A DNA stretch of 64,000 nt, taken from sequence record MN850651.1; one strand, given 5' to 3'. The translations under genes were made by a program, and so were the position numbers. The notes beneath the pieces are model-generated. The model did no database searches, had not been told where the DNA came from, and saw nothing but the letters and a program-made list of their open reading frames with translations. Shown one piece after another: positions 4,525 through 62,306 of this stretch. The DNA is from Escherichia phage moskry. Position 1 is the stretch's first letter, and every line of letters begins with the position of its first letter.

Positions 4525-5850
4525 TCAAAGTGCCTCCAAGTCTTTAGTGTACTCGGTCACAACATCAGTAGACTTCCAATACTCATTTTCTTCTTTCTTA
4601 GCTTTAGCTTCTTCTGCTAGTTTACGTGCTTCGTCGGAAGTGATATGGAAGATGTTAAGACCTACCAGTTTATCGACATGTTCTTTATACATTTCGATTT
4701 GTGCTAGCTCTTCAGTCAAAGCTTTACGAGTCTTGCCCTGAATCACAATTTCACCTGTAATAACTTTTTTGATGAAGTGTGCCTTAGCAAAAGCAAGTTT
4801 AAATGCTTTTTCAGATTCAAGGATTTTGTTGTCAATACGTTTCTGAACGTAAGTCTTACGGACTTCAACAAAATCTTTGATTAAGTCCACTACGTTATCG
4901 TAGACAGCTAATTTACCCTTTTCATTAATCACTGTGATGTTTTGTGAACGACGTTCGATTAGACTAAAATCTTTCATGATTTTTTCATGACGTAGCTCTT
5001 CGTCATCAGGAAGCGAGTACTCTTTACGGAACTTCACCTTAAACCCAAAGCCGTGTTCACCGCAATCATCTTCCCATGAGATTAGACCTTTGTCTTCCAA
5101 CGGGTCAAGAACCTTACTCACATACGTTTCACGGTCAAATTTATACGGGATTTCAGTTATCTGCATTTGAGTTCGAGATGTGAACTTATATGTCCCGTGA
5201 ATCTCATAACGCCCATCAACTTCATGTACTTCACCACGGAATTCCGGGAATTCAACTTTTGGCTTAGTGACATTTTTACCTTGAAGAGCTTGTAATACGG
5301 CCTTTTTGACTGATTTAAAACTATGAGGCAGAATATTTGTTGCGTAACCGGTTGCAATACCAGAGACGCCATTCAAAAGAACTGTCGGAATAATAGGAAG
5401 ATAGAATTTTGGTGGAATGTGTTCTTTATCTTCATGAGCTGGAGCATATTCAGTATCTTTATATACGTTATAGAAATTTTTACTTACACGAGCAAAAATA
5501 TAACGAGATGCTGCAGCTTTTTGGACTGTTCTAGAACCAAAGTTGCCTTGGCCATCTAACAGTGGATAGTTGTTGTTCCATGTGTTAGCCATCAATGCAC
5601 CTGCATCTTGTGCAGAAGATTCACCGTGGTGATAACCTAAATCTGCAACACCACCTGCAATTGACGCAAGTTTATGAAATTTTTCTTTATTACCACGAGC
5701 CAAATCTAACGCACGATGAACCACAAAACGTTGAACCGGCTTAAATCCATCAATCATGTTTGGGATTGCACGGTTTTCAACGGTGTACATCGCATATGCT
5801 AAGGCTTCGTTATCAATAATACTTTTTAGATTACGAGAATTCAATTGCAT
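4525..5850 (-). CDS. 52: DNA topoisomerase II medium subunit gp52
   Basis: 441 aa; GyrA-like N-terminus (..RAIPNMIDGFKPVQRFVV.., active-site region) matching T4 gp52. Confidence 0.95.
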   Translation of the reverse strand: MQLNSRNLKSIIDNEALAYAMYTVENRAIPNMIDGFKPVQRFVVHRALDLARGNKEKFHKLASIAGGVADLGYHHGESSAQDAGALMANTWNNNYPLLDGQGNFGSRTVQKAAASRYIFARVSKNFYNVYKDTEYAPAHEDKEHIPPKFYLPIIPTVLLNGVSGIATGYATNILPHSFKSVKKAVLQALQGKNVTKPKVEFPEFRGEVHEVDGRYEIHGTYKFTSRTQMQITEIPYKFDRETYVSKVLDPLEDKGLISWEDDCGEHGFGFKVKFRKEYSLPDDEELRHEKIMKDFSLIERRSQNITVINEKGKLAVYDNVVDLIKDFVEVRKTYVQKRIDNKILESEKAFKLAFAKAHFIKKVITGEIVIQGKTRKALTEELAQIEMYKEHVDKLVGLNIFHITSDEARKLAEEAKAKKEENEYWKSTDVVTEYTKDLEAL

Positions 5851-5854
5851 ATTT

Positions 5855-5995
5855 TCACCATATTAATGAACGAATAGCCATTATAACATCTGAAATGAAA
5901 AGCACTACTTGGATTAGTCCAAACATCACACCATAATACAGAACCGTAAGCAACAACAAGAGCCCGAAGGCTCCTGCTAGGATTTTCTTAATCAT
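5855..5995 (-). CDS. tiny hydrophobic protein (46 aa)
   Basis: Not in ORF track (<60 aa). MIKKILAGAFGLLLLLTVLYYGVMFGLIQVV..; start overlaps the stop of the upstream tiny ORF as TAATG; between gene 52 and ndd where T4 has 52.1/ac/stp-type small genes. Confidence 0.35.
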   Translation of the reverse strand: MIKKILAGAFGLLLLLTVLYYGVMFGLIQVVLFISDVIMAIRSLIW

Positions 5996-6141
5996 TACTC
6001 GCCTTTTAACACGTTAATAAGAGCTAAGACCGCTAAGGTGCCTTGTGATACGGCCTGTTGAAATACTGTTGTTTCGCCTGTAACTAAAGTGTTAACGAAT
6101 AAAAACGACCAACACAGCAATGCAATAATCCATGATACCAT
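5995..6141 (-). CDS. tiny hydrophobic protein (48 aa)
   Basis: Not in ORF track. MVSWIIALLCWSFLFVNTLVTGETTVFQQAVSQGTLAVLALINVLKGE; single TM helix. Confidence 0.35.
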   Translation of the reverse strand: MVSWIIALLCWSFLFVNTLVTGETTVFQQAVSQGTLAVLALINVLKGE

Positions 6142-16122: not shown

Positions 16123-16647
16123 TCATTTTAGCAAAATAAAATCAACTTGTTCTGCCAATGAACGTCTAAACATTAATTGACAACTTCCGAGGATGAAATC
16201 AGGTGCTTCATAGACCGCGATGTAGTATCCTTTAGCTTTCAAGAGTTCAACATCCACCTGGTCATCAAACCATGCATAAACCGCGTCAACACTTTCAAAT
16301 CCAAAATAGAACTCTTGAGCCCAATCTTCGTTCAATTCAAATGTGTGCTCAATTCTATAGTATCTTAAGATATTTTGTTCAAGGAGTTTGTCTTCATTTA
16401 CTGTAGGACGATTAGGGACATTATAGTTGTCGCCGTGATGGTAGAAGTTACCTGAGAGTATTCCATGTTTATCAAGGAATTCCCATGTTTCTTCAGAGTT
16501 GTCAGTGCCAGACCAACCGTATGGCGAACGAGGTTCTTTATTCCAAGAGGTTTCCCAAATTCTGACGGCTTTACCGTCTTTGATAGCAATTCCTGGTAAT
16601 GATTCACGTTGAGTACAAAAACTACGTTCTACGCGGTAAACTAACAT
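16123..16647 (-). CDS. hypothetical protein (174 aa)
   Basis: ORF track; SD GAGGAG 8 nt before ATG; own promoter. Confidence 0.5.
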   Translation of the reverse strand: MLVYRVERSFCTQRESLPGIAIKDGKAVRIWETSWNKEPRSPYGWSGTDNSEETWEFLDKHGILSGNFYHHGDNYNVPNRPTVNEDKLLEQNILRYYRIEHTFELNEDWAQEFYFGFESVDAVYAWFDDQVDVELLKAKGYYIAVYEAPDFILGSCQLMFRRSLAEQVDFILLK

Positions 16648-16652
16648 ATTAT

Positions 16653-16695
16653 TCTCCTCTGGTTGACATGGTTATAATATCAAAACCAGAGGAGA
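16653..16695 (-). promoter_or_regulatory. 13-bp inverted repeat (UUCUCCUCUGGUU / AACCAGAGGAGAA) able to sequester the SD of the 16647 gene in read-through RNA; promoter -10 lies in the loop
   Basis: Perfect complementarity read in sequence; the 3' arm contains the GAGGAG SD. Confidence 0.5.
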
Positions 16696-16702
16696 AGTAA
16701 AC
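16674..16702 (-). promoter_or_regulatory. early promoter GTTTAC-N17-TATTAT
   Basis: Consensus hexamers; transcripts starting here would lack the 5' arm of the SD-occluding hairpin. Confidence 0.5.
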
Positions 16703-16706
16703 AATT

Positions 16707-17126
16707 TTATGCGAAAGCAGCTGGGCTATATTTTTTAATTTGGAATTCAGGAACTACCATGAACTGACCAGCGAAAACGATGTTATAAAGCTTAACACCA
16801 TCTTCTACCCAACGGTCGCTAATAAATCCGGCGATTTGCTTAGTTTTCCATGGCGTTCCATCAGTTGCCGCAGCAATAGTGAATTCATGGTCTTTTTCAA
16901 CAGAAACTGATCTGCATAGTCCCCATTTGAACGCTTTTTCTTCTGGTTCAATGAACTGGCTTGAGACGTAGCCAATATTACCATTAGCATCACGAACTTT
17001 AACTTGGTTACGACCAAAAACCGGATCACTCACAGAAAGAACTTCAACCAACTTCCCGGCAACTTTAGAGCGAGAAGCAACAGATACATATACGTAATCA
17101 CCTGTAGAGAGATTTACAATATTCAT
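16707..17126 (-). CDS. hypothetical protein, member A of a tandem paralog trio
   Basis: 139 aa; shares N-terminal ..ASRSK.AGKLVEV.. and C-terminal ..GFISD.WVEDG.KLYNIVF.G.F.VV.. with the next gene. Confidence 0.55.
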   Translation of the reverse strand: MNIVNLSTGDYVYVSVASRSKVAGKLVEVLSVSDPVFGRNQVKVRDANGNIGYVSSQFIEPEEKAFKWGLCRSVSVEKDHEFTIAAATDGTPWKTKQIAGFISDRWVEDGVKLYNIVFAGQFMVVPEFQIKKYSPAAFA

Positions 17127-17135
17127 AATAATTCC

Positions 17136-17600
17136 TTAAGCTTTACGAGGAGACACATAGCGAGTGATTTCAGATTCTTTAACAACTCGGAAGTCACCTA
17201 AGAATACGATATTGTATAACTTTTCACCATCTTCAACCCATTGGTCACTAATGAAGCCACACATAGTATCAGTTTTGCTTGGATAACCGTATTCATCGAT
17301 GAAGTCAAATTCTTTATCAGTCTGGAATTCAACGCCTTTGCAAAGGGCCCATTTGAACTGTGTAGTAGGCTCAACTATATCGCTTGAAGCAAAGTGGGCA
17401 CTTACACGAGTTTCCAAGAATTTAGGACTTACATAGGCGAACTGAGTTTCAGTTTTTCCAGAACTAGGAATGATTCGAACTTTAACTTCTTTAATACGGC
17501 CCATGCCATTAGTACGAAGTCCTACTACTTCAACCAGCTTTCCTGCAGCTTTAGAACGAGACGCTGTCGATACACGTTTAATTTCACCAATATTAATCAT
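17136..17600 (-). CDS. hypothetical protein, member B of the tandem paralog trio
   Basis: Track ORF 17136-17663 begins inside the promoter; internal Met MINIGEIKRVSTASRSKAAGKLVEV.. aligns with the N-terminus of member A. Confidence 0.5.
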   Translation of the reverse strand: MINIGEIKRVSTASRSKAAGKLVEVVGLRTNGMGRIKEVKVRIIPSSGKTETQFAYVSPKFLETRVSAHFASSDIVEPTTQFKWALCKGVEFQTDKEFDFIDEYGYPSKTDTMCGFISDQWVEDGEKLYNIVFLGDFRVVKESEITRYVSPRKA

Positions 17601-17630
17601 ATTTTTTCTCTCTTTGTTTAAATTGAATTC

Positions 17631-17660
17631 ATTATACTCCATCCATCCTTGGATGTACAA
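17631..17660 (-). promoter_or_regulatory. early promoter, copy 1 of a repeated about 30-bp module (TGTACA-N17-TATAAT)
   Basis: ATTATACTCCATCCATCCTTGGATGTACAA on + strand. Confidence 0.5.
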
Positions 17661-17662
17661 CA

Positions 17663-18157
17663 TTAATTTAGAATATTAACTACTGCACTACGTGGAACAA
17701 CGCTAAAATCACCGGCATGAACAACGTTCAGAAGTTCAACCCCATCTTCAATCCACTGATCAGTTACCCATCCACTCACTGGACCTGCGAACGGACGACG
17801 AATTGAAACAGCTTTACACAACAAATCAGTAGGCTCAATAGGCTTAATCAGAGTACCGTACATACAAGCGATATCCATATCAATACAGATGTCTTTAACG
17901 GGTTCTACTTCTTCAACCAACAGTTCAAAGTCGGTGCTTGGAAGGGCGGTAGTAGAAATTGTACCATATGAATTTTTAATTTCTAAGAATAACCAAGGGC
18001 CTTCAGCTTGTTTGATGAAGTTAACAATAGTGAAACTATTACCTTGAGTGGCACCTAAAATTTCACAAAACTTTTCATAAGCTCGCACTGAAGCACCATA
18101 CCAGTTGATTTGTTTTTCGTCTTTCAGGATGTAAGTAGCCGTAGTATTGATATTCAT
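17663..18157 (-). CDS. hypothetical protein, member C of the tandem paralog trio
   Basis: 164 aa; C-terminal ..SGWVTDQWIEDGVELLNVVHAGDFSVVP.. related to members A and B. Confidence 0.5.
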   Translation of the reverse strand: MNINTTATYILKDEKQINWYGASVRAYEKFCEILGATQGNSFTIVNFIKQAEGPWLFLEIKNSYGTISTTALPSTDFELLVEEVEPVKDICIDMDIACMYGTLIKPIEPTDLLCKAVSIRRPFAGPVSGWVTDQWIEDGVELLNVVHAGDFSVVPRSAVVNILN

Positions 18158-18188: not shown

Positions 18189-18218
18189 ATTATACTCCAA
18201 CCATCCTTGGTTGTAAAC
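18189..18218 (-). promoter_or_regulatory. early promoter, copy 2 of the repeated module (GTTTAC-N18-TATAAT)
   Basis: ATTATACTCCAACCATCCTTGGTTGTAAAC on + strand; nearly identical at about 60265 and 61285. Confidence 0.5.
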
Positions 18219-58978: not shown

Positions 58979-59283
58979 TATAATGTTCTCTCAAATTTGT
59001 GGAAGCATTTACGGCATTTCAATTTCAAGTTATCAGTGGTCCAGTTAACCAGTTGGACTTGGATAGTTCCACATTCCGGGCATGGATGTTTTGCTGCCGA
59101 TTTGGCAGCATTTTCACGTCGTTCAACCATTTTCATTATTTCGTTCCATGCCGGAGGAACGAACTCTTCTTCACCGTGGATTTTATCTCGCTGAACAAAT
59201 TCGATCTTTGAACTATCGTCAATAAACTTAACCAAGCCATGATTAGTGCTCATATCAATATCCTCTAAAAGACGTAGTTTCAT
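58978..59283 (-). CDS. zinc-ribbon protein (101 aa)
   Basis: ..CPECGTIQV..CRKCFHKF.. near the C-terminus. Confidence 0.5.
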   Translation of the reverse strand: MKLRLLEDIDMSTNHGLVKFIDDSSKIEFVQRDKIHGEEEFVPPAWNEIMKMVERRENAAKSAAKHPCPECGTIQVQLVNWTTDNLKLKCRKCFHKFERTL

Positions 59284-60233
59284 TATAACACCTCAATGGC
59301 ATTTCGTAAACCATCCGCTTTCGCATTCAGAGCTTTTAACGATTTAGTTTGTTCTGCAATCTGGGCTTCGACTTCTTTCAGACGAGATTTGAGATATTCG
59401 CGTTCTTCTCTTAAGTTATCAACTTTTTCTGCTTTAGGCTCTTTAATAGGCTTAGGCTTATACTCGTTAGGGTTCTTCAACTTAATTTGAATGCGAGAAC
59501 TGTATAACATTGAACCATTATCTTCGGTTTCATCATACATTTCTACCACGTCCATGATTCTTAACATCATGCGAAGTTTATAAGACAGCGAACGAACGGT
59601 TTTGTTGCGCTTATTAATTTCTTCGGCTTTCATGGTACCGAGATTACGTGAGTAGTAATAAGGAACCTGGATATCAATTGATAATGATGCGTTACCATTA
59701 CCGGTTGGTTTGAATACTGCAGTAACCCAATCTTTAACATGAACTTTATTTGTACGATCATCGCCGCCTGTGAATAATTTACGAGAATGTTTAAAAAGCA
59801 TATTCACTTGGTTATTGAATTCACAAGCAAATTTATCAGCAAATTTAGTTTCAGGAATGGTAGATAACCAATCAGCCAAATGAGTCTTTTTAACATCATT
59901 AACAATAGTGAATTCAACCAAATCGGTTTTAGATGTCACAGATTTAATAAAGCTCGGCTTCATAAAGTTTTTAATGTTATCGCGAGCTACAGTAGAAGAT
60001 AATAAACGAGAACGTTTGAACCATTGAAGCAACGTCCCTAACGAATGAGAATACGCATTTTGAGTATCTTTACAGATATGATTTTCTTGGCCTATGTATG
60101 TACCAAAATCGCGAAGAATACCACTTACTACATCTCGGTGTGGAACATCAAATCCTAGTGCACCAGAAGCACGTTGGGCATGAACGTTAGCGATAAGACC
60201 TGCAAAGTATTCAATGTAATGTGAACGTGTCAT
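59283..60233 (-). CDS. hypothetical protein with C-terminal coiled coil (316 aa)
   Basis: ORF track; heptad-like C-terminal 50 aa (..LKSRLKEVEAQIAEQTKSLKALNAKADGLRNAIEVL). Confidence 0.5.
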   Translation of the reverse strand: MTRSHYIEYFAGLIANVHAQRASGALGFDVPHRDVVSGILRDFGTYIGQENHICKDTQNAYSHSLGTLLQWFKRSRLLSSTVARDNIKNFMKPSFIKSVTSKTDLVEFTIVNDVKKTHLADWLSTIPETKFADKFACEFNNQVNMLFKHSRKLFTGGDDRTNKVHVKDWVTAVFKPTGNGNASLSIDIQVPYYYSRNLGTMKAEEINKRNKTVRSLSYKLRMMLRIMDVVEMYDETEDNGSMLYSSRIQIKLKNPNEYKPKPIKEPKAEKVDNLREEREYLKSRLKEVEAQIAEQTKSLKALNAKADGLRNAIEVL

Positions 60234-60260: not shown

Positions 60261-60290
60261 CATTATACTCCAACCATCCTTGGTTGTAAA
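60261..60290 (-). promoter_or_regulatory. early promoter, copy 3 of the repeated module (GTTTAC-N18-TATAAT)
   Basis: ATTATACTCCAACCATCCTTGGTTGTAAAC, identical to the copy at about 18189. Confidence 0.5.
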
Positions 60291-60295
60291 CTATT

Positions 60296-61255
60296 TTATG
60301 ATTTTAATGCATTCATTGCGTTAAAAAGTTTAGAATACTGCAACTGGAGATTCGTTACAACACTTTGAGCATCACGAAGTTTAGCTTGTGCTTTGTCAAG
60401 TTCAACAGACAGTTGGTCCATAGTGGCCTTGATTTGATTATAATGGTAATCTTCGGCCGGAAGAAGGTCATTAGAAACATTTAGTTTTACTGCAGACAGT
60501 TTGCACACATTTGGCAAACCTTTAAACATTGATTTACCCGAAGTAGAATAAGCACTTAGGACTTCGGCCTGTTCAATTGGGGTCCCAGTAAGCGATGCTT
60601 CAAACGTTGCATTTTCCTTTTTAAGATTTTGATAATATTCGGAGTCTTTGTGCCACCATGGCGCAGGAACCTTTTTACCAATAGATACACGAGCCTGGAT
60701 AGCGATATGGCCCTTATTCTTGATAGGGTTGATAATATTAAGCTCACGAGAATAAATTGCTTTAATCTGGTGAATATTATCACCTAAAACTTCCAACGCT
60801 TGGTGGAATACACGAGCAACGTTATCATTCTTAGGTTTATACGTAAGAGTGAACTCATTCTCACTGATAACCATGATTTCCAACTTATCGTAAGTATATT
60901 TCAAATGTTTCATGTTAATTGCTTGAGGATGAATACGAGAAGCAATGGCCATCAGATTGTTAAGGTTATTCCGGAACTGCTTAGCGAAATATTGTCCTTC
61001 ACCGCCAATACAAAAATTACGAAGTTTCTGTTTGGCTAATAAACGGCTGAACTCACCATTTTTAATGAACTCTTTAACGGGTGTGTTAGTAACGCATTCA
61101 AATTGAGTAAACTTACGAGAAGTAATCCCATAATATGAACAGACTTCCTCAATCTCTTCAGGAGTCTTTACAGGCATACGGATAGGATTAGGTCCTGGAG
61201 TATATGCGTTCGAGGTAAATTCTTTGATAAGTTCTTTACGTGTAATAAAAGCCAT
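60296..61255 (-). CDS. hypothetical protein with C-terminal coiled coil (319 aa)
   Basis: ORF track; C-terminal ..LDKAQAKLRDAQSVVTNLQLQYSKLFNAMNALKS. Confidence 0.5.
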   Translation of the reverse strand: MAFITRKELIKEFTSNAYTPGPNPIRMPVKTPEEIEEVCSYYGITSRKFTQFECVTNTPVKEFIKNGEFSRLLAKQKLRNFCIGGEGQYFAKQFRNNLNNLMAIASRIHPQAINMKHLKYTYDKLEIMVISENEFTLTYKPKNDNVARVFHQALEVLGDNIHQIKAIYSRELNIINPIKNKGHIAIQARVSIGKKVPAPWWHKDSEYYQNLKKENATFEASLTGTPIEQAEVLSAYSTSGKSMFKGLPNVCKLSAVKLNVSNDLLPAEDYHYNQIKATMDQLSVELDKAQAKLRDAQSVVTNLQLQYSKLFNAMNALKS

Positions 61256-61281: not shown

Positions 61282-61310
61282 ATTATACTCCAACCATCCT
61301 TGGTTGTACA
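61282..61310 (-). promoter_or_regulatory. early promoter, copy 4 of the repeated module (TGTACA-N17-TATAAT)
   Basis: ATTATACTCCAACCATCCTTGGTTGTACA. Confidence 0.5.
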
Positions 61311-62306
61311 TCATTCCTTAAGAAGTTTTACTACTTGAATAAGATTAGCTCGTTCTGTTTTATTTTTACCATTTAAGCCTGCTAATCGTGAGATTTCATC
61401 GTCAGTCTGTTGAATAGTTACATTAAGTTCGTTAATCAAAGCTTCAAAGTATTTGATTTGCTCAGCATGTTTTGATTCAAATTTCTGAACAGGAATAACG
61501 TCTTGGTTCAGTTCATCAATAAGGTCTTTAAGAGCATCTTCTTGGTTGATATCATATTCAACTTCTTTTATTTCTTCAACGAGCTCGTCTTTATATCTAA
61601 CGTCTTTTAGTCCTGGTGCTGGTCCTGAAATCTCTTCTTTAAGAGTACAAACATATCCAATACGGTATCCAATGCCGTCTCGCTTGATATCAACTTCGTC
61701 GATAAATCCACAATGTTTAAGACCAGAGCCGATTAGGTCAAAATATCCTTGACGTCGTCCTTCAAACGTTACACGAACTACTAAGACAGTTTTACCTGCA
61801 ACCTTTTGAAGCTCACATTTATAAAAGTCAGTTGAACCTGAATAACTTGGATGAGTTTTAAAGTTCATCTGACGATCTAGGCCCATTTGTAAGCGTGCTG
61901 TTACGGCCATAAAACGTGTTTGGTTCTCGTTAAGATGAGCAACAATCCATTTCAAAGGCATTTTACACTGTTCACGACCGAACAAATCAGTACGTCCTAG
62001 ATTACGCAGGATGTTGTTAGAGTTAATCATCGACAGAACGTTAAGTTTATTCAGCGCGCTGAAGATTCCATCAGCCATTGATTTTCCATAACCTTTACAC
62101 GCTTTAATAAGTGCTCGCGGCAGATTAGTATAGATTTCAGACGGCATATGAAAATCAAATTTACTAACCAGTAATTGATGAACTTGGATAGCAATTTGTT
62201 CATAATTAAGTGCTCTGCGATCGTTATGGTCTTTAAACCACACTTTAATCTGTGAAGCACATAAACCGTTAATTTCATGTTTTACCGCATCAGATGTAAT
62301 GCTCAT
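61311..62306 (-). CDS. hypothetical protein with C-terminal coiled coil (331 aa)
   Basis: ORF track. Confidence 0.5.
   Translation of the reverse strand: MSITSDAVKHEINGLCASQIKVWFKDHNDRRALNYEQIAIQVHQLLVSKFDFHMPSEIYTNLPRALIKACKGYGKSMADGIFSALNKLNVLSMINSNNILRNLGRTDLFGREQCKMPLKWIVAHLNENQTRFMAVTARLQMGLDRQMNFKTHPSYSGSTDFYKCELQKVAGKTVLVVRVTFEGRRQGYFDLIGSGLKHCGFIDEVDIKRDGIGYRIGYVCTLKEEISGPAPGLKDVRYKDELVEEIKEVEYDINQEDALKDLIDELNQDVIPVQKFESKHAEQIKYFEALINELNVTIQQTDDEISRLAGLNGKNKTERANLIQVVKLLKE

Follow-up and report, generated by a model that had tools for sequence, protein, structure and literature searches.

A motB.1-motB-motB' cluster of putatively exchangeable modules in the early region of an RB69-like T-even phage

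MotB of phage T4, the best-studied protein of its family, coats DNA, which it binds non-specifically, is toxic on expression and increases the burst size twofold; H-NS and StpA co-purify with it, the H-NS footprint is altered and H-NS-regulated genes are de-repressed (PMC6070864, PMC7827196). Compaction of DNA by T4 MotB was described by Son et al. 2021 (NAR 49:9229), as quoted in PMC12152347 and PMC12449154. As for MotB.1, deletion and amber mutants of the T4 gene have no phenotype, and an RNA reporter assay showed no effect of the protein (PMC12152347). RB69 carries two motB genes together with motB.1, with the C-terminal domain in common (Patterson-West et al. 2021, PMC7827196). Since that description covers the RB69 cluster, the finding of a tandem array that we report here was already known: the cluster is published biology, and no new kind of system is added. 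What is new is the acidity of the C-terminal domain, the mosaicism at domain boundaries, the exchange of a B-A gene pair and the frameshifts in motB.1.

The stretch of DNA analysed (64,000 nucleotides of Escherichia phage moskry, MN850651.1; hereafter the window) comes from a Mosigvirus, that is, an RB69-like T-even phage. Three genes lie side by side on its minus strand, in the leftward-transcribed early region dda-dexA-motB-cef-goF: gene C (17663-18157; 164 aa, acidic, pI 4.5), gene B (17136-17600; 154 aa) and gene A (16707-17126; 139 aa, near neutral), followed by a motB.2 homolog (16123-16647). All plus-strand ORFs of the region are at most 75 aa long, overlap A, B or C and were taken as non-coding. 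The three products have a C-terminal block in common (GFISDRWVEDGVKLYNIVFAGQFMVV in A, GFISDQWVEDGEKLYNIVFLGDFRVV in B and GWVTDQWIEDGVELLNVVHAGDFSVV in C), and A and B also share an N-terminal motif (ASRSKVAGKLVEV and ASRSKAAGKLVEV, respectively). The similarity is significant for all three pairs by pairwise BLASTP: A and B are 44% identical over their full length (E 4e-33), while C resembles them in the C-terminal block only, with 35% identity to A across 57 C-terminal residues (E 5e-11) and 44% to B across 36 residues (E 3e-10). A six-frame HMM scan and a motif scan of the window both found exactly these three copies of the C-terminal domain. The genes are thus evidently true paralogs in tandem. 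A sequence-only reading of this DNA had already proposed three adjacent early genes of these sizes, with the same C-terminal block and, in A and B, the N-terminal motif; the ORFs, the motifs, the alignments and the Pfam scores given below all agree with it, as do the gene context and the sigma-70 consensus promoters for the early assignment. That reading did not identify the array as the named, published genes motB.1, motB and second motB.

By orthology, C evidently corresponds to T4 MotB.1 and B to T4 MotB, and A is a second MotB copy. This identity follows from (i) Pfam and PHROG assignments, (ii) synteny with T4 and RB69 and (iii) identity to T4 MotB and MotB.1. All three proteins score above the curated whole-protein gathering score of the Pfam motB model PF17613, set at 25 bits (A 75.6, B 139 and C 36.2 bits), the match of C being confined to positions 77-153, in the C-terminal half of the model; A and B match phrog_1671 (E 6.6e-51 and 9.5e-66) and C matches phrog_2333 (E 1.3e-82). 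We took as T4 MotB orthologs those proteins that align to T4 MotB over their full length and carry both the SRSKxAGKLVEV N-terminal and the DQWVEDG C-terminal motifs. B does so with 49% identity (residues 1-148), A with 37% identity over 96-99% of the length; C, having a different N-terminal domain, falls outside the definition. B also lies where an ortholog of T4 MotB is expected, after motB.1 in the dexA-cef interval and behind its own early promoter. For C, an alignment that spans 99% of the protein gives 47% identity to the T4-type MotB.1 of 143 aa (cluster P0131), the predicted structure recovers T4 P39415 (E 1.3e-9, BFVD Foldseek) and both the LSm and the C-terminal-domain HMMs match. 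C belongs to the MotB.1/LSm-like fold family (Tevenvirinae MotB.1, GoF and Frd.2), defined here by a bent five-stranded antiparallel LSm/SH3-type N-terminal sheet plus sequence similarity to MotB.1. A Pfam search at E up to 1 reported no KOW (PF00467) profile match.

Domain HMM scans placed an LSm gene with the C-terminal domain immediately upstream of a KOW gene with this domain in all 20 related loci; the third gene, of the KOW type, was confined there to Mosigvirus-type loci, and the annotations of RB3 and pSe_SNUABM_01 also contain one. The IMG/VR scan yielded 17 loci only, and the main basis of the copy-number counts is therefore the INPHARED phage set, sorted into bands of tblastn identity. 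The family is small: a C-terminal-domain profile run against 1.84 billion representative proteins gave 29 matches and no extension into other protein families, and the family comprises about 25 representatives at 50% identity, the named ones being from T-even-type phages. Three long matches (570-934 aa), each made of 6-7 short stretches, look spurious.

C is preceded by an early sigma-70 type promoter on the minus strand (18189-18218, GTTTACA-N17-TATAAT, 11/12 consensus matches), and the 30-nt cassette that holds it is found again at 60262-60291. A second promoter of this type (17631-17659, minus strand, TGTACA-N17-TATAAT, 10/12 matches) lies within the 60 bp that separate the C stop codon from the B ATG at 17600; its 22-nt spacer plus -10 region is one base off the copy upstream of C, and the T4 counterpart between motB.1 and motB reads GTTTAC-N18-TATAAT. 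A hairpin in the conserved spacer was considered and dismissed, the folding energies being ordinary (z -0.7 and -2.2). From its first ATG, the B ORF would span 17136-17663 and encode 175 aa, but this in-frame ATG at 17663 is upstream of B's own promoter; the 154-aa start is the one used in the APCEc01 RefSeq record, and alignment to PF17613 (model positions 2-157) begins at residue 22 of the long ORF. A starts 9 bp past the B stop codon, the gap holding a Shine-Dalgarno sequence (AAGGA) only, and a scan of the minus strand within the 3' part of B found no promoter-like site for A. A is therefore most likely co-transcribed with B: C would be transcribed from its own early promoter, and B and A together from the second. 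Individual promoters, earlier assigned to each gene, thus hold for C and B and not for A.

Single-base frameshifts, missing from re-sequenced or related genomes, explain why motB.1 is truncated in the reference records of T4 and RB69. In the T4 reference, MotB.1 is a 119-aa protein ("13.8 kDa"), and the extra G responsible is missing from two re-sequenced T4 genomes, which led us to reject programmed +1 frameshifting of the RF2 type as the source of the truncation. In the RB69 reference, two extra T residues lie behind a split into ORFs of 132 and 29 aa, whereas C is a single intact 164-aa ORF in the window. These frameshifts matter for the choice of the protein to clone and for interpreting the absent phenotype of T4 motB.1: if the T4 stocks behind the published motB.1 work encode the 143-aa form, any construct designed from the 119-aa annotation is missing half of the conserved domain.

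Each protein is predicted to consist of two small domains and a linker. In C, an LSm-like N-terminal domain (residues 1-84, 17906-18157) is followed by a linker (85-106, 17840-17905) and the C-terminal domain (107-164, 17666-17839); in B, a KOW/SH3-like N-terminal domain (1-62, 17415-17600) by a linker (63-81, 17358-17414) and the C-terminal domain (82-154, 17139-17357); and in A, a KOW/SH3-like domain (1-58, 16953-17126) by a 7-residue linker and the C-terminal domain (66-139, 16710-16931). AlphaFold2 models, built from an alignment without a T4 sequence row, have pLDDT values of 78.6 for C and 82.6 for B; confidence is high inside the domains (85-95 in the C-terminal one) and below 50 at residues 86-106 of C and 66-79 of B, the linkers being disordered and that of B also variable. 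The linker of C contains the peptide DMDIACMYGTLIKP (residues 93-106; 17840-17881, minus strand), and related motifs occur in other MotB.1-type proteins (P0124-P0126, P0149, P0150, P0155, P0159, P0177, P0178 and P0194), where their positions differ. The common C-terminal domain is predicted as a small beta-barrel of about 55-75 residues with the motif G(F/W)(I/V)(S/T)DxW(V/I)EDG.(K/E)L.N(I/V)V, and the N-terminal barrels of A and B bear the SRSKxAGKLVEV motif. A sequence search with B against all PDB chains gave nothing meaningful (best E 0.52) and no solved structure for any MotB family member. The C-terminal domain of MotB has been published as an OB-fold, either domain being allowed as the DNA binder (PMC7827196). 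In our models it looks SH3/Tudor-like, and it is acidic in B and C, which makes it a candidate interaction module rather than a candidate DNA binder. A strongly basic N-terminal domain is found in B alone (net charge +8, pI 10.7, against -4 for its C-terminal domain).

By analogy with T4, the locus is probably a motB.1-motB-motB' cluster of exchangeable modules in which B acts like T4 MotB. Three early genes would have been assembled from a common C-terminal barrel and a KOW/SH3-like or LSm-like N-terminal domain, with a disordered linker between them whose length varies. As a nucleoid-associated protein of the phage, B would bind DNA of host and phage alike, regardless of sequence, compact it and displace or re-arrange H-NS/StpA, with a modest gain in burst size. 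Charge suggests a division of labour: the basic N-terminal barrel of B may be the main DNA-binding surface, and the acidic-to-neutral C-terminal barrel a common interaction or oligomerisation module bridging one DNA-bound protein to another or to a shared partner. A may be a short-linker version of the B-type activity. C is acidic throughout and so unlikely to bind DNA alone; more likely, it would join or modulate the same complex through the common C-terminal domain. Against this explanation stand the modest identity of B to T4 MotB (only 49%), its lower basicity (pI 8.5 versus 9.2) and the near-neutral charge of A. On the same side are, as regards C, the lack of a phenotype in T4 motB.1 mutants and of an effect in the RNA reporter assay, and the AlphaFold3 predictions for MotB.1, which gave no confident homomultimers (PMC12152347) and are thus not in favour of a C-terminal domain that oligomerises. 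The C-terminal barrel could also be, instead of a DNA-binding OB-fold, a Tudor/SH3-like module by which MotB, second MotB and acidic MotB.1 assemble with each other or on a single host partner, part of a phage "chromatin" kit, an idea that we hold to be rather unlikely. If it were true, basic KOW-type heads would sit on DNA, linker length would set the bridging distance, MotB.1 would tune or cap the assembly by means of its LSm-like head and of DMDIACMYGTLIKP as a mobile docking peptide, and domain-boundary recombination would reshuffle the parts between phage genera.

Recombination of this kind is apparent from the alleles. A, B and C are intact and under purifying selection (pairwise dN/dS 0.03-0.39). 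Within Mosigvirus, the flanking dda and dexA are 99-100% identical, whereas the figures are 80-99% for B and 86-100% for A. In the B of L006, 40 of the 59 residues of the N-terminal domain and 10 of the 19 of the linker are identical, as against 71 of 73 in the C-terminal domain; in A, the swapped domain is the N-terminal one in some phages and the C-terminal one in others. Natural hybrids join a T4-type N-terminal domain to a B-type C-terminal domain (P0033 and P0035), the reverse (P0037), or an N-terminal domain from B to a C-terminal domain from A (P0036). When Mosigvirus is compared with the Tequatroviruses RB3 and pSe_SNUABM_01, identity is 79-89% in the B-A pair and only 43-78% in its flanks, where dS is saturated; the pair is thus far closer than its surroundings, which argues for horizontal exchange of a cassette. 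A and B are therefore evidently mosaic at domain boundaries within the genus, and the B-A pair has apparently moved between Mosigvirus and Tequatrovirus. As a tidy natural case of module shuffling, A, B and C illustrate the hyperplastic early region of T-even phages.

Such variation might be read as an arms race, in which the copies and mosaic alleles are each tuned to a different target of the host or of mobile elements (e.g. H-NS, StpA, Hha or plasmid- and prophage-encoded H-NS-like proteins), with specificity set by the variable N-terminal part and linker, and the common activity provided by the constant C-terminal domain. The variability of A and B beside nearly constant dda and dexA, its focus in the N-terminal domain and linker of B, the domain swaps in A and the exchanged cassette are all in line with it, as is the B linker in one comparison, where dN (0.352) exceeds dS (0.131). 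That signal, however, comes from 19 codons, dN/dS of whole genes stays below 0.4 everywhere, and the raised dS of divergent segments (up to 1.6) fits recombination with old, diverged alleles and not recent positive selection. Moreover, direct contact between MotB and H-NS was not found, the two associating only with DNA present (PMC7827196). We thus consider an arms race improbable, though it deserves to be kept in mind; of the "diversifying" array of the sequence-only reading, the high mosaic allelic diversity stands and positive selection does not.

A role as transcription regulators, acting on RNA polymerase or specific promoters to regulate phage middle genes, is suggested by the database names ("modifier of transcription", "MotB-like transcriptional regulator") and by the historical recovery of MotB in an RNA polymerase complex (PMC6070864). 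It is very unlikely, however: RNA-seq of a T4 motB-amber mutant found early and middle transcripts not significantly changed and a few late genes mildly so, MotB binds DNA without sequence specificity (PMC6070864, PMC7827196), and a KOW match is not among the Pfam results. Inhibition of a bacterial immune system by the array, as proposed earlier, is just as hard to credit, for although an early, dispensable, hypervariable region with a horizontally exchanged mosaic cassette is circumstantially suggestive and H-NS silencing of AT-rich foreign DNA can be viewed as a form of defence (PMC7827196), Pfam, PHROGs and the literature consulted offer no link to inhibitors of restriction, CRISPR, CBASS or similar systems, the family is small and T-even-type in its named members, and its known phenotype concerns DNA and H-NS. 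The earlier proposal of host takeover or anti-defence thus survives as takeover, for the characterised T4 MotB only, and nothing in these analyses or in the literature consulted points to anti-defence.

A motB.1-motB-motB' cluster in which B acts like T4 MotB, which we prefer, has several points of comparison. Archaeal chromatin contains Sso7d and Cren7, small proteins with an SH3-like barrel and non-specific DNA binding. The eukaryotic Royal family barrels (Tudor, PWWP, chromo, BAH) and the KOW domains of NusG/Spt5 have sequence identities of 7-20% only, a fold-class match that confers no family membership and implies neither methyl-lysine nor RNA polymerase contacts. T7 gp5.5 and T4 Arn, other phage anti-H-NS factors, are functional analogues through interference with H-NS (PMC7827196, PMC12449154). 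T4 MotB (NP_049626, PF17613) and B are alike in two-domain architecture, early promoter and place after motB.1, with 49% identity over 96% of the length. A has this architecture as well (37% identity), but its linker is not long and its N-terminal domain is without the "RIIPxxGK" hairpin insert, and the window has two MotB-type copies where T4 has one. T4 MotB.1 (P39415; 143 aa in re-sequenced T4) and C both have an LSm-like N-terminal and a C-terminal domain and lie upstream of motB, but C has a 22-residue linker insert with DMDIACMYGTLIKP that T4 MotB.1 lacks; motB.2 lies between dexA and motB.1 in T4 and after A in the window. In RB69, RB69p013, p012, p011 and p010 are motB.1, the 29-aa ORF, motB and the "MotB-like" equivalent of A: genus, gene order and the three paralogs are all as in the window.

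Three minus-strand ORFs follow one another at 16707-18157: A (16707-17126, 139 aa), B (17136-17663; 175 aa with its first ATG as the start, 154 aa with the ATG at 17600) and C (17663-18157, 164 aa). In pairwise comparisons A and B aligned from end to end (44% identity, E 4e-33), and only the last 36-57 residues of C aligned to A and B (E 5e-11 and 3e-10). The motif G(F/W)(I/V)(S/T)DxW(V/I)EDG.(K/E)L.N(I/V)V lies near the C-terminus of all three proteins, and A and B also carry ASRSK.AGKLVEV close to their N-termini; a six-frame profile scan of the 64-kb window found exactly three copies of the C-terminal block. The similarity is thus real and far beyond chance. The sequence-only reading, which had proposed three paralogous genes with a common C-terminal block and an N-terminal motif shared by A and B, is confirmed as an observation, while its interpretation was only partly right (see below).

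All three proteins exceed the gathering score (25 bits) of the Pfam model PF17613 'motB' (A, 75.6; B, 139; C, 36.2), and PHROGs places A and B in phrog_1671 ('MotB-like transcriptional regulator') and C in phrog_2333. By its sequence, B is the orthologue of MotB (49% identity to the T4 protein); A is a second MotB-type protein, shorter and 37% identical to T4 MotB, and C is the MotB.1 orthologue, 47% identical to the T4-type form of 143 aa. Many Mosigvirus (RB69-like T-even) phages match the A-B-C region at 96-98% identity, and the B protein is 100% identical to one in the 'Mosigvirus mar005p1' assembly.

The functional data available for the family concern T4 MotB only (PMC6070864, PMC7827196). 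This protein binds tightly, without sequence specificity, to both unmodified and glucosyl-hydroxymethylated DNA, doubles the burst size and leaves the T4 transcriptome unchanged; H-NS and StpA co-purify with it only when DNA is present, it alters the H-NS footprint, and 75 host genes are up-regulated, of which about one in three belongs to the H-NS regulon (PMC6070864, PMC7827196). Compaction of host and phage DNA has also been attributed to it (Son et al. 2021, as cited in PMC12152347 and PMC12449154). For MotB.1, AlphaFold predicts an LSm-like N-terminal fold, as in GoF and Frd.2, and neither plating nor burst was affected in T4 motB.1 mutants (Kim et al. 2025, PMC12152347).

No solved structure exists for any MotB-family member, and AlphaFold2 models of B and C were built with family alignments (pLDDT 82.6 and 78.6, respectively). 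In each, a disordered linker (pLDDT <50; residues 66-79 in B, 86-106 in C) lies between two all-beta domains. In B, the N-terminal domain, of the KOW/SH3-like type also found in A, carries a net charge of +8 (pI 10.7) and the C-terminal domain a charge of -4 (pI 4.7). Whole-protein values are +1 (pI 7.8) for A, -9 (pI 4.5) for C and +6 (pI 9.2) for T4 MotB, the last in agreement with the published pI of 9.23 (PMC6070864). The only domain that A, B and C share, the C-terminal one, is non-basic in both B and C, which makes it an unlikely non-specific DNA binder. Our inference is that DNA is bound mainly by the KOW-type head, with the conserved tail serving for interaction or oligomerisation. With moderate confidence, B may be assigned the activity of T4 MotB by orthology; A may share it, at lower confidence given its short linker and near-neutral charge. 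C, being acidic, would most likely work by way of the shared tail rather than on DNA. The linker of C (residues 93-106, 17840-17881, pLDDT <50) holds the motif DMDIACMYGTLIKP, D(M/F/T)D(I/V)A(C/S)MYGTLIKP, which T4 MotB.1 lacks. Related versions occur in P0124-P0126, P0149, P0150, P0155, P0159, P0177, P0178 and P0194, at varying positions: N-terminal, between the copies of a duplicated LSm domain, or within the linkers of KOW-type proteins. The motif resembles a mobile short linear docking motif.

Two minus-strand sigma-70 sites come close to the consensus, one upstream of C (TTTACA-17-TATAAT, 18217-18189) and one in the 60 bp separating the C stop codon from the ATG at 17600 (TGTACA-17-TATAAT, 17659-17631); T4 has GTTTAC-N18-TATAAT at the equivalent site, between motB.1 and motB. 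The second promoter falls within the 21 extra N-terminal codons of the long B ORF, the PF17613 alignment begins at residue 22 of that ORF, and its upstream ATG has no Shine-Dalgarno sequence. The 154-aa start at 17600 is therefore the likely one, and the size of about 154 aa guessed earlier for B is favoured on the same grounds. A starts 9 bp after the B stop codon, behind an AAGGA Shine-Dalgarno, and a minus-strand scan found no promoter-like site in front of it; A and B most likely share a transcript, with A as its second cistron. The earlier proposal of a separate promoter for each gene thus holds for B and C but fails for A. The promoters upstream of B and C share a 22-nt core, CCAAGGATGG(T/A)TGGAGTATAAT, present in four minus-strand copies in the window (17631-17652, 18189-18210, 60262-60283 and 61282-61303) against a chance expectation of none. 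In the copy before B, CAACCA..TGGTTG is replaced by CATCCA..TGGATG, a paired change that preserves a 6-bp inverted repeat. Each of the other two copies precedes an ORF (59283-60233, 316 aa; 60296-61255, 319 aa), and a third ORF of comparable length (61311-62306, 331 aa) adjoins these, all three being of ~320 aa. The arrangement recalls the repeated early-promoter cassettes reported for T4-type hyperplastic regions.

Directly after the A stop codon, a strong minus-strand hairpin (CUCCUCUGGUU...AACCAGAGGAG, 16650-16696, -24.1 kcal/mol, z -6.2) pairs with the GAGGAG Shine-Dalgarno of the following 174-aa gene (16123-16647). An intrinsic terminator is ruled out, since no U-run follows the hairpin. 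A minus-strand promoter-like site (TTTACT-16-TATTAT, 16701-16674) overlaps its 5' arm, so the ribosome site of this gene would be masked on read-through B-A transcripts and unmasked on those from the local promoter. The 174-aa gene is the homologue of T4 motB.2 (T4 locus L003, 2662-3162); it has no Pfam match and is unrelated to A, B and C and, despite its name, to MotB. In phage F2, the motB.2 homologue is wholly absent.

The family is taxonomically restricted. By tblastn, matches occur in 771-777 of 50,697 phage records, almost all T-even relatives with Enterobacteriaceae hosts. B-type alleles (at least 60% identity) are found in ~201 records and A-type genes (at least 80% identity) in 207, numbers from which the two appear to occur together. 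A profile built from the three C-terminal domains and run against 1.84 billion representative proteins returned only 29 matches, nearly all of 100-251 aa with the domain C-terminal; as the named members come from T-even-type phages, the family is very narrow. Across 20 related loci, the gene combining an LSm domain with the tail always lies directly upstream of the one with a KOW-type head, and the third, A-type gene is confined to Mosigvirus-type loci; the annotations of RB3 and pSe_SNUABM_01 show the same three-gene arrangement. In some Gaprivervirus-type loci (L007, L009 and L010; about 5320-6117), MotB.1 reaches ~250 aa, with two tandem LSm-like N-terminal repeats before the C-terminal domain.

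Compared with ten Mosigvirus-type loci, A (86-100% protein identity, dN/dS 0.00-0.22), B (80-99%, 0.09-0.39) and C (93-99%, 0.03-0.16) vary more than dda and dexA (99-100%, 0.00-0.05). In two of the loci compared (L006 and L028), the N-terminal domain of B is only 40/59 identical (dS about 1.6) and the C-terminal domain 71-73/73 identical (dS about 0.1); in A, the divergent part is the N- or the C-terminal domain depending on the phage. A and B are thus mosaic by domain, and the high dS of the divergent blocks speaks for exchange with old alleles and against recent positive selection. N- and C-terminal domain trees conflict for several proteins: P0033 and P0035 join a T4-type head to a B-type tail (99% identical to that of B in P0033) and P0037 is the reverse, a B-type head with a T4-type tail. 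P0036 (173 aa, on a 3.8-kb contig), in which the N-terminal domain and linker of B-type are joined to an A-type C-terminal domain at an FKW motif, looks like the product of an unequal crossing-over that collapsed a B-A tandem. In the Tequatroviruses RB3 and pSe_SNUABM_01, B and A are 79-89% identical to the window (16707-17600, dS about 0.55) whereas dda, dexA, cef and motB.2 reach no more than 39-78% identity and their dS is saturated; the B-A pair has thus passed between genera as a cassette.

Two reference records disrupt motB.1. In T4 (NC_000866.4, L003 2295-2320), one extra G (TGGATTGGAAGATGG vs TGGATTGAAGATGG) cuts MotB.1 to 119 aa (13.8 kDa, the size given in published work) in the middle of the conserved GWVTDQWIEDG motif; the re-sequenced T4 genomes MT984581.1 and OZ035787.1 lack this G and encode 143 aa, a form (P0131) present on 256 contigs. 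Compared with the window and with other Mosigviruses, RB69 (NC_004928, L021 3877-4373) has a single T inserted at two places, which breaks motB.1 into ORFs of 132 aa and 29 aa, the latter being RB69p012. On sequence grounds, this 29-aa 'Category 3' peptide, listed separately in the literature, is a motB.1 fragment, and the split is most likely a frameshift artefact of sequencing or of the strain. In a metagenomic contig (L019 5402-5918), motB.1 spans two frames, split elsewhere than in T4 and RB69.

Gene order in the window is dda, dexA, C, B, A, the 174-aa gene, cef, goF; in T4 it is dda, dexA.2, dexA.1, dexA, motB.2, motB.1, motB, cef, goF. The window thus lacks dexA.1 and dexA.2 between dda and dexA, and motB.2 lies downstream of A instead of between dexA and motB.1. 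The RB69 reference annotates the same set as the window: motB.1, the 29-aa ORF, motB, a 'MotB-like' gene and motB.2. An earlier study aligned 102 phage homologues, reported that MotB and MotB.1 have a conserved C-terminal domain in common and different N-terminal domains, and suggested that one derives from duplication of the other (Patterson-West et al. 2021, Viruses 13:84, PMC7827196). Together with Kim et al. 2025 and with some GenBank records that name all three genes 'MotB', this makes the array a known, named and already published gene cluster.
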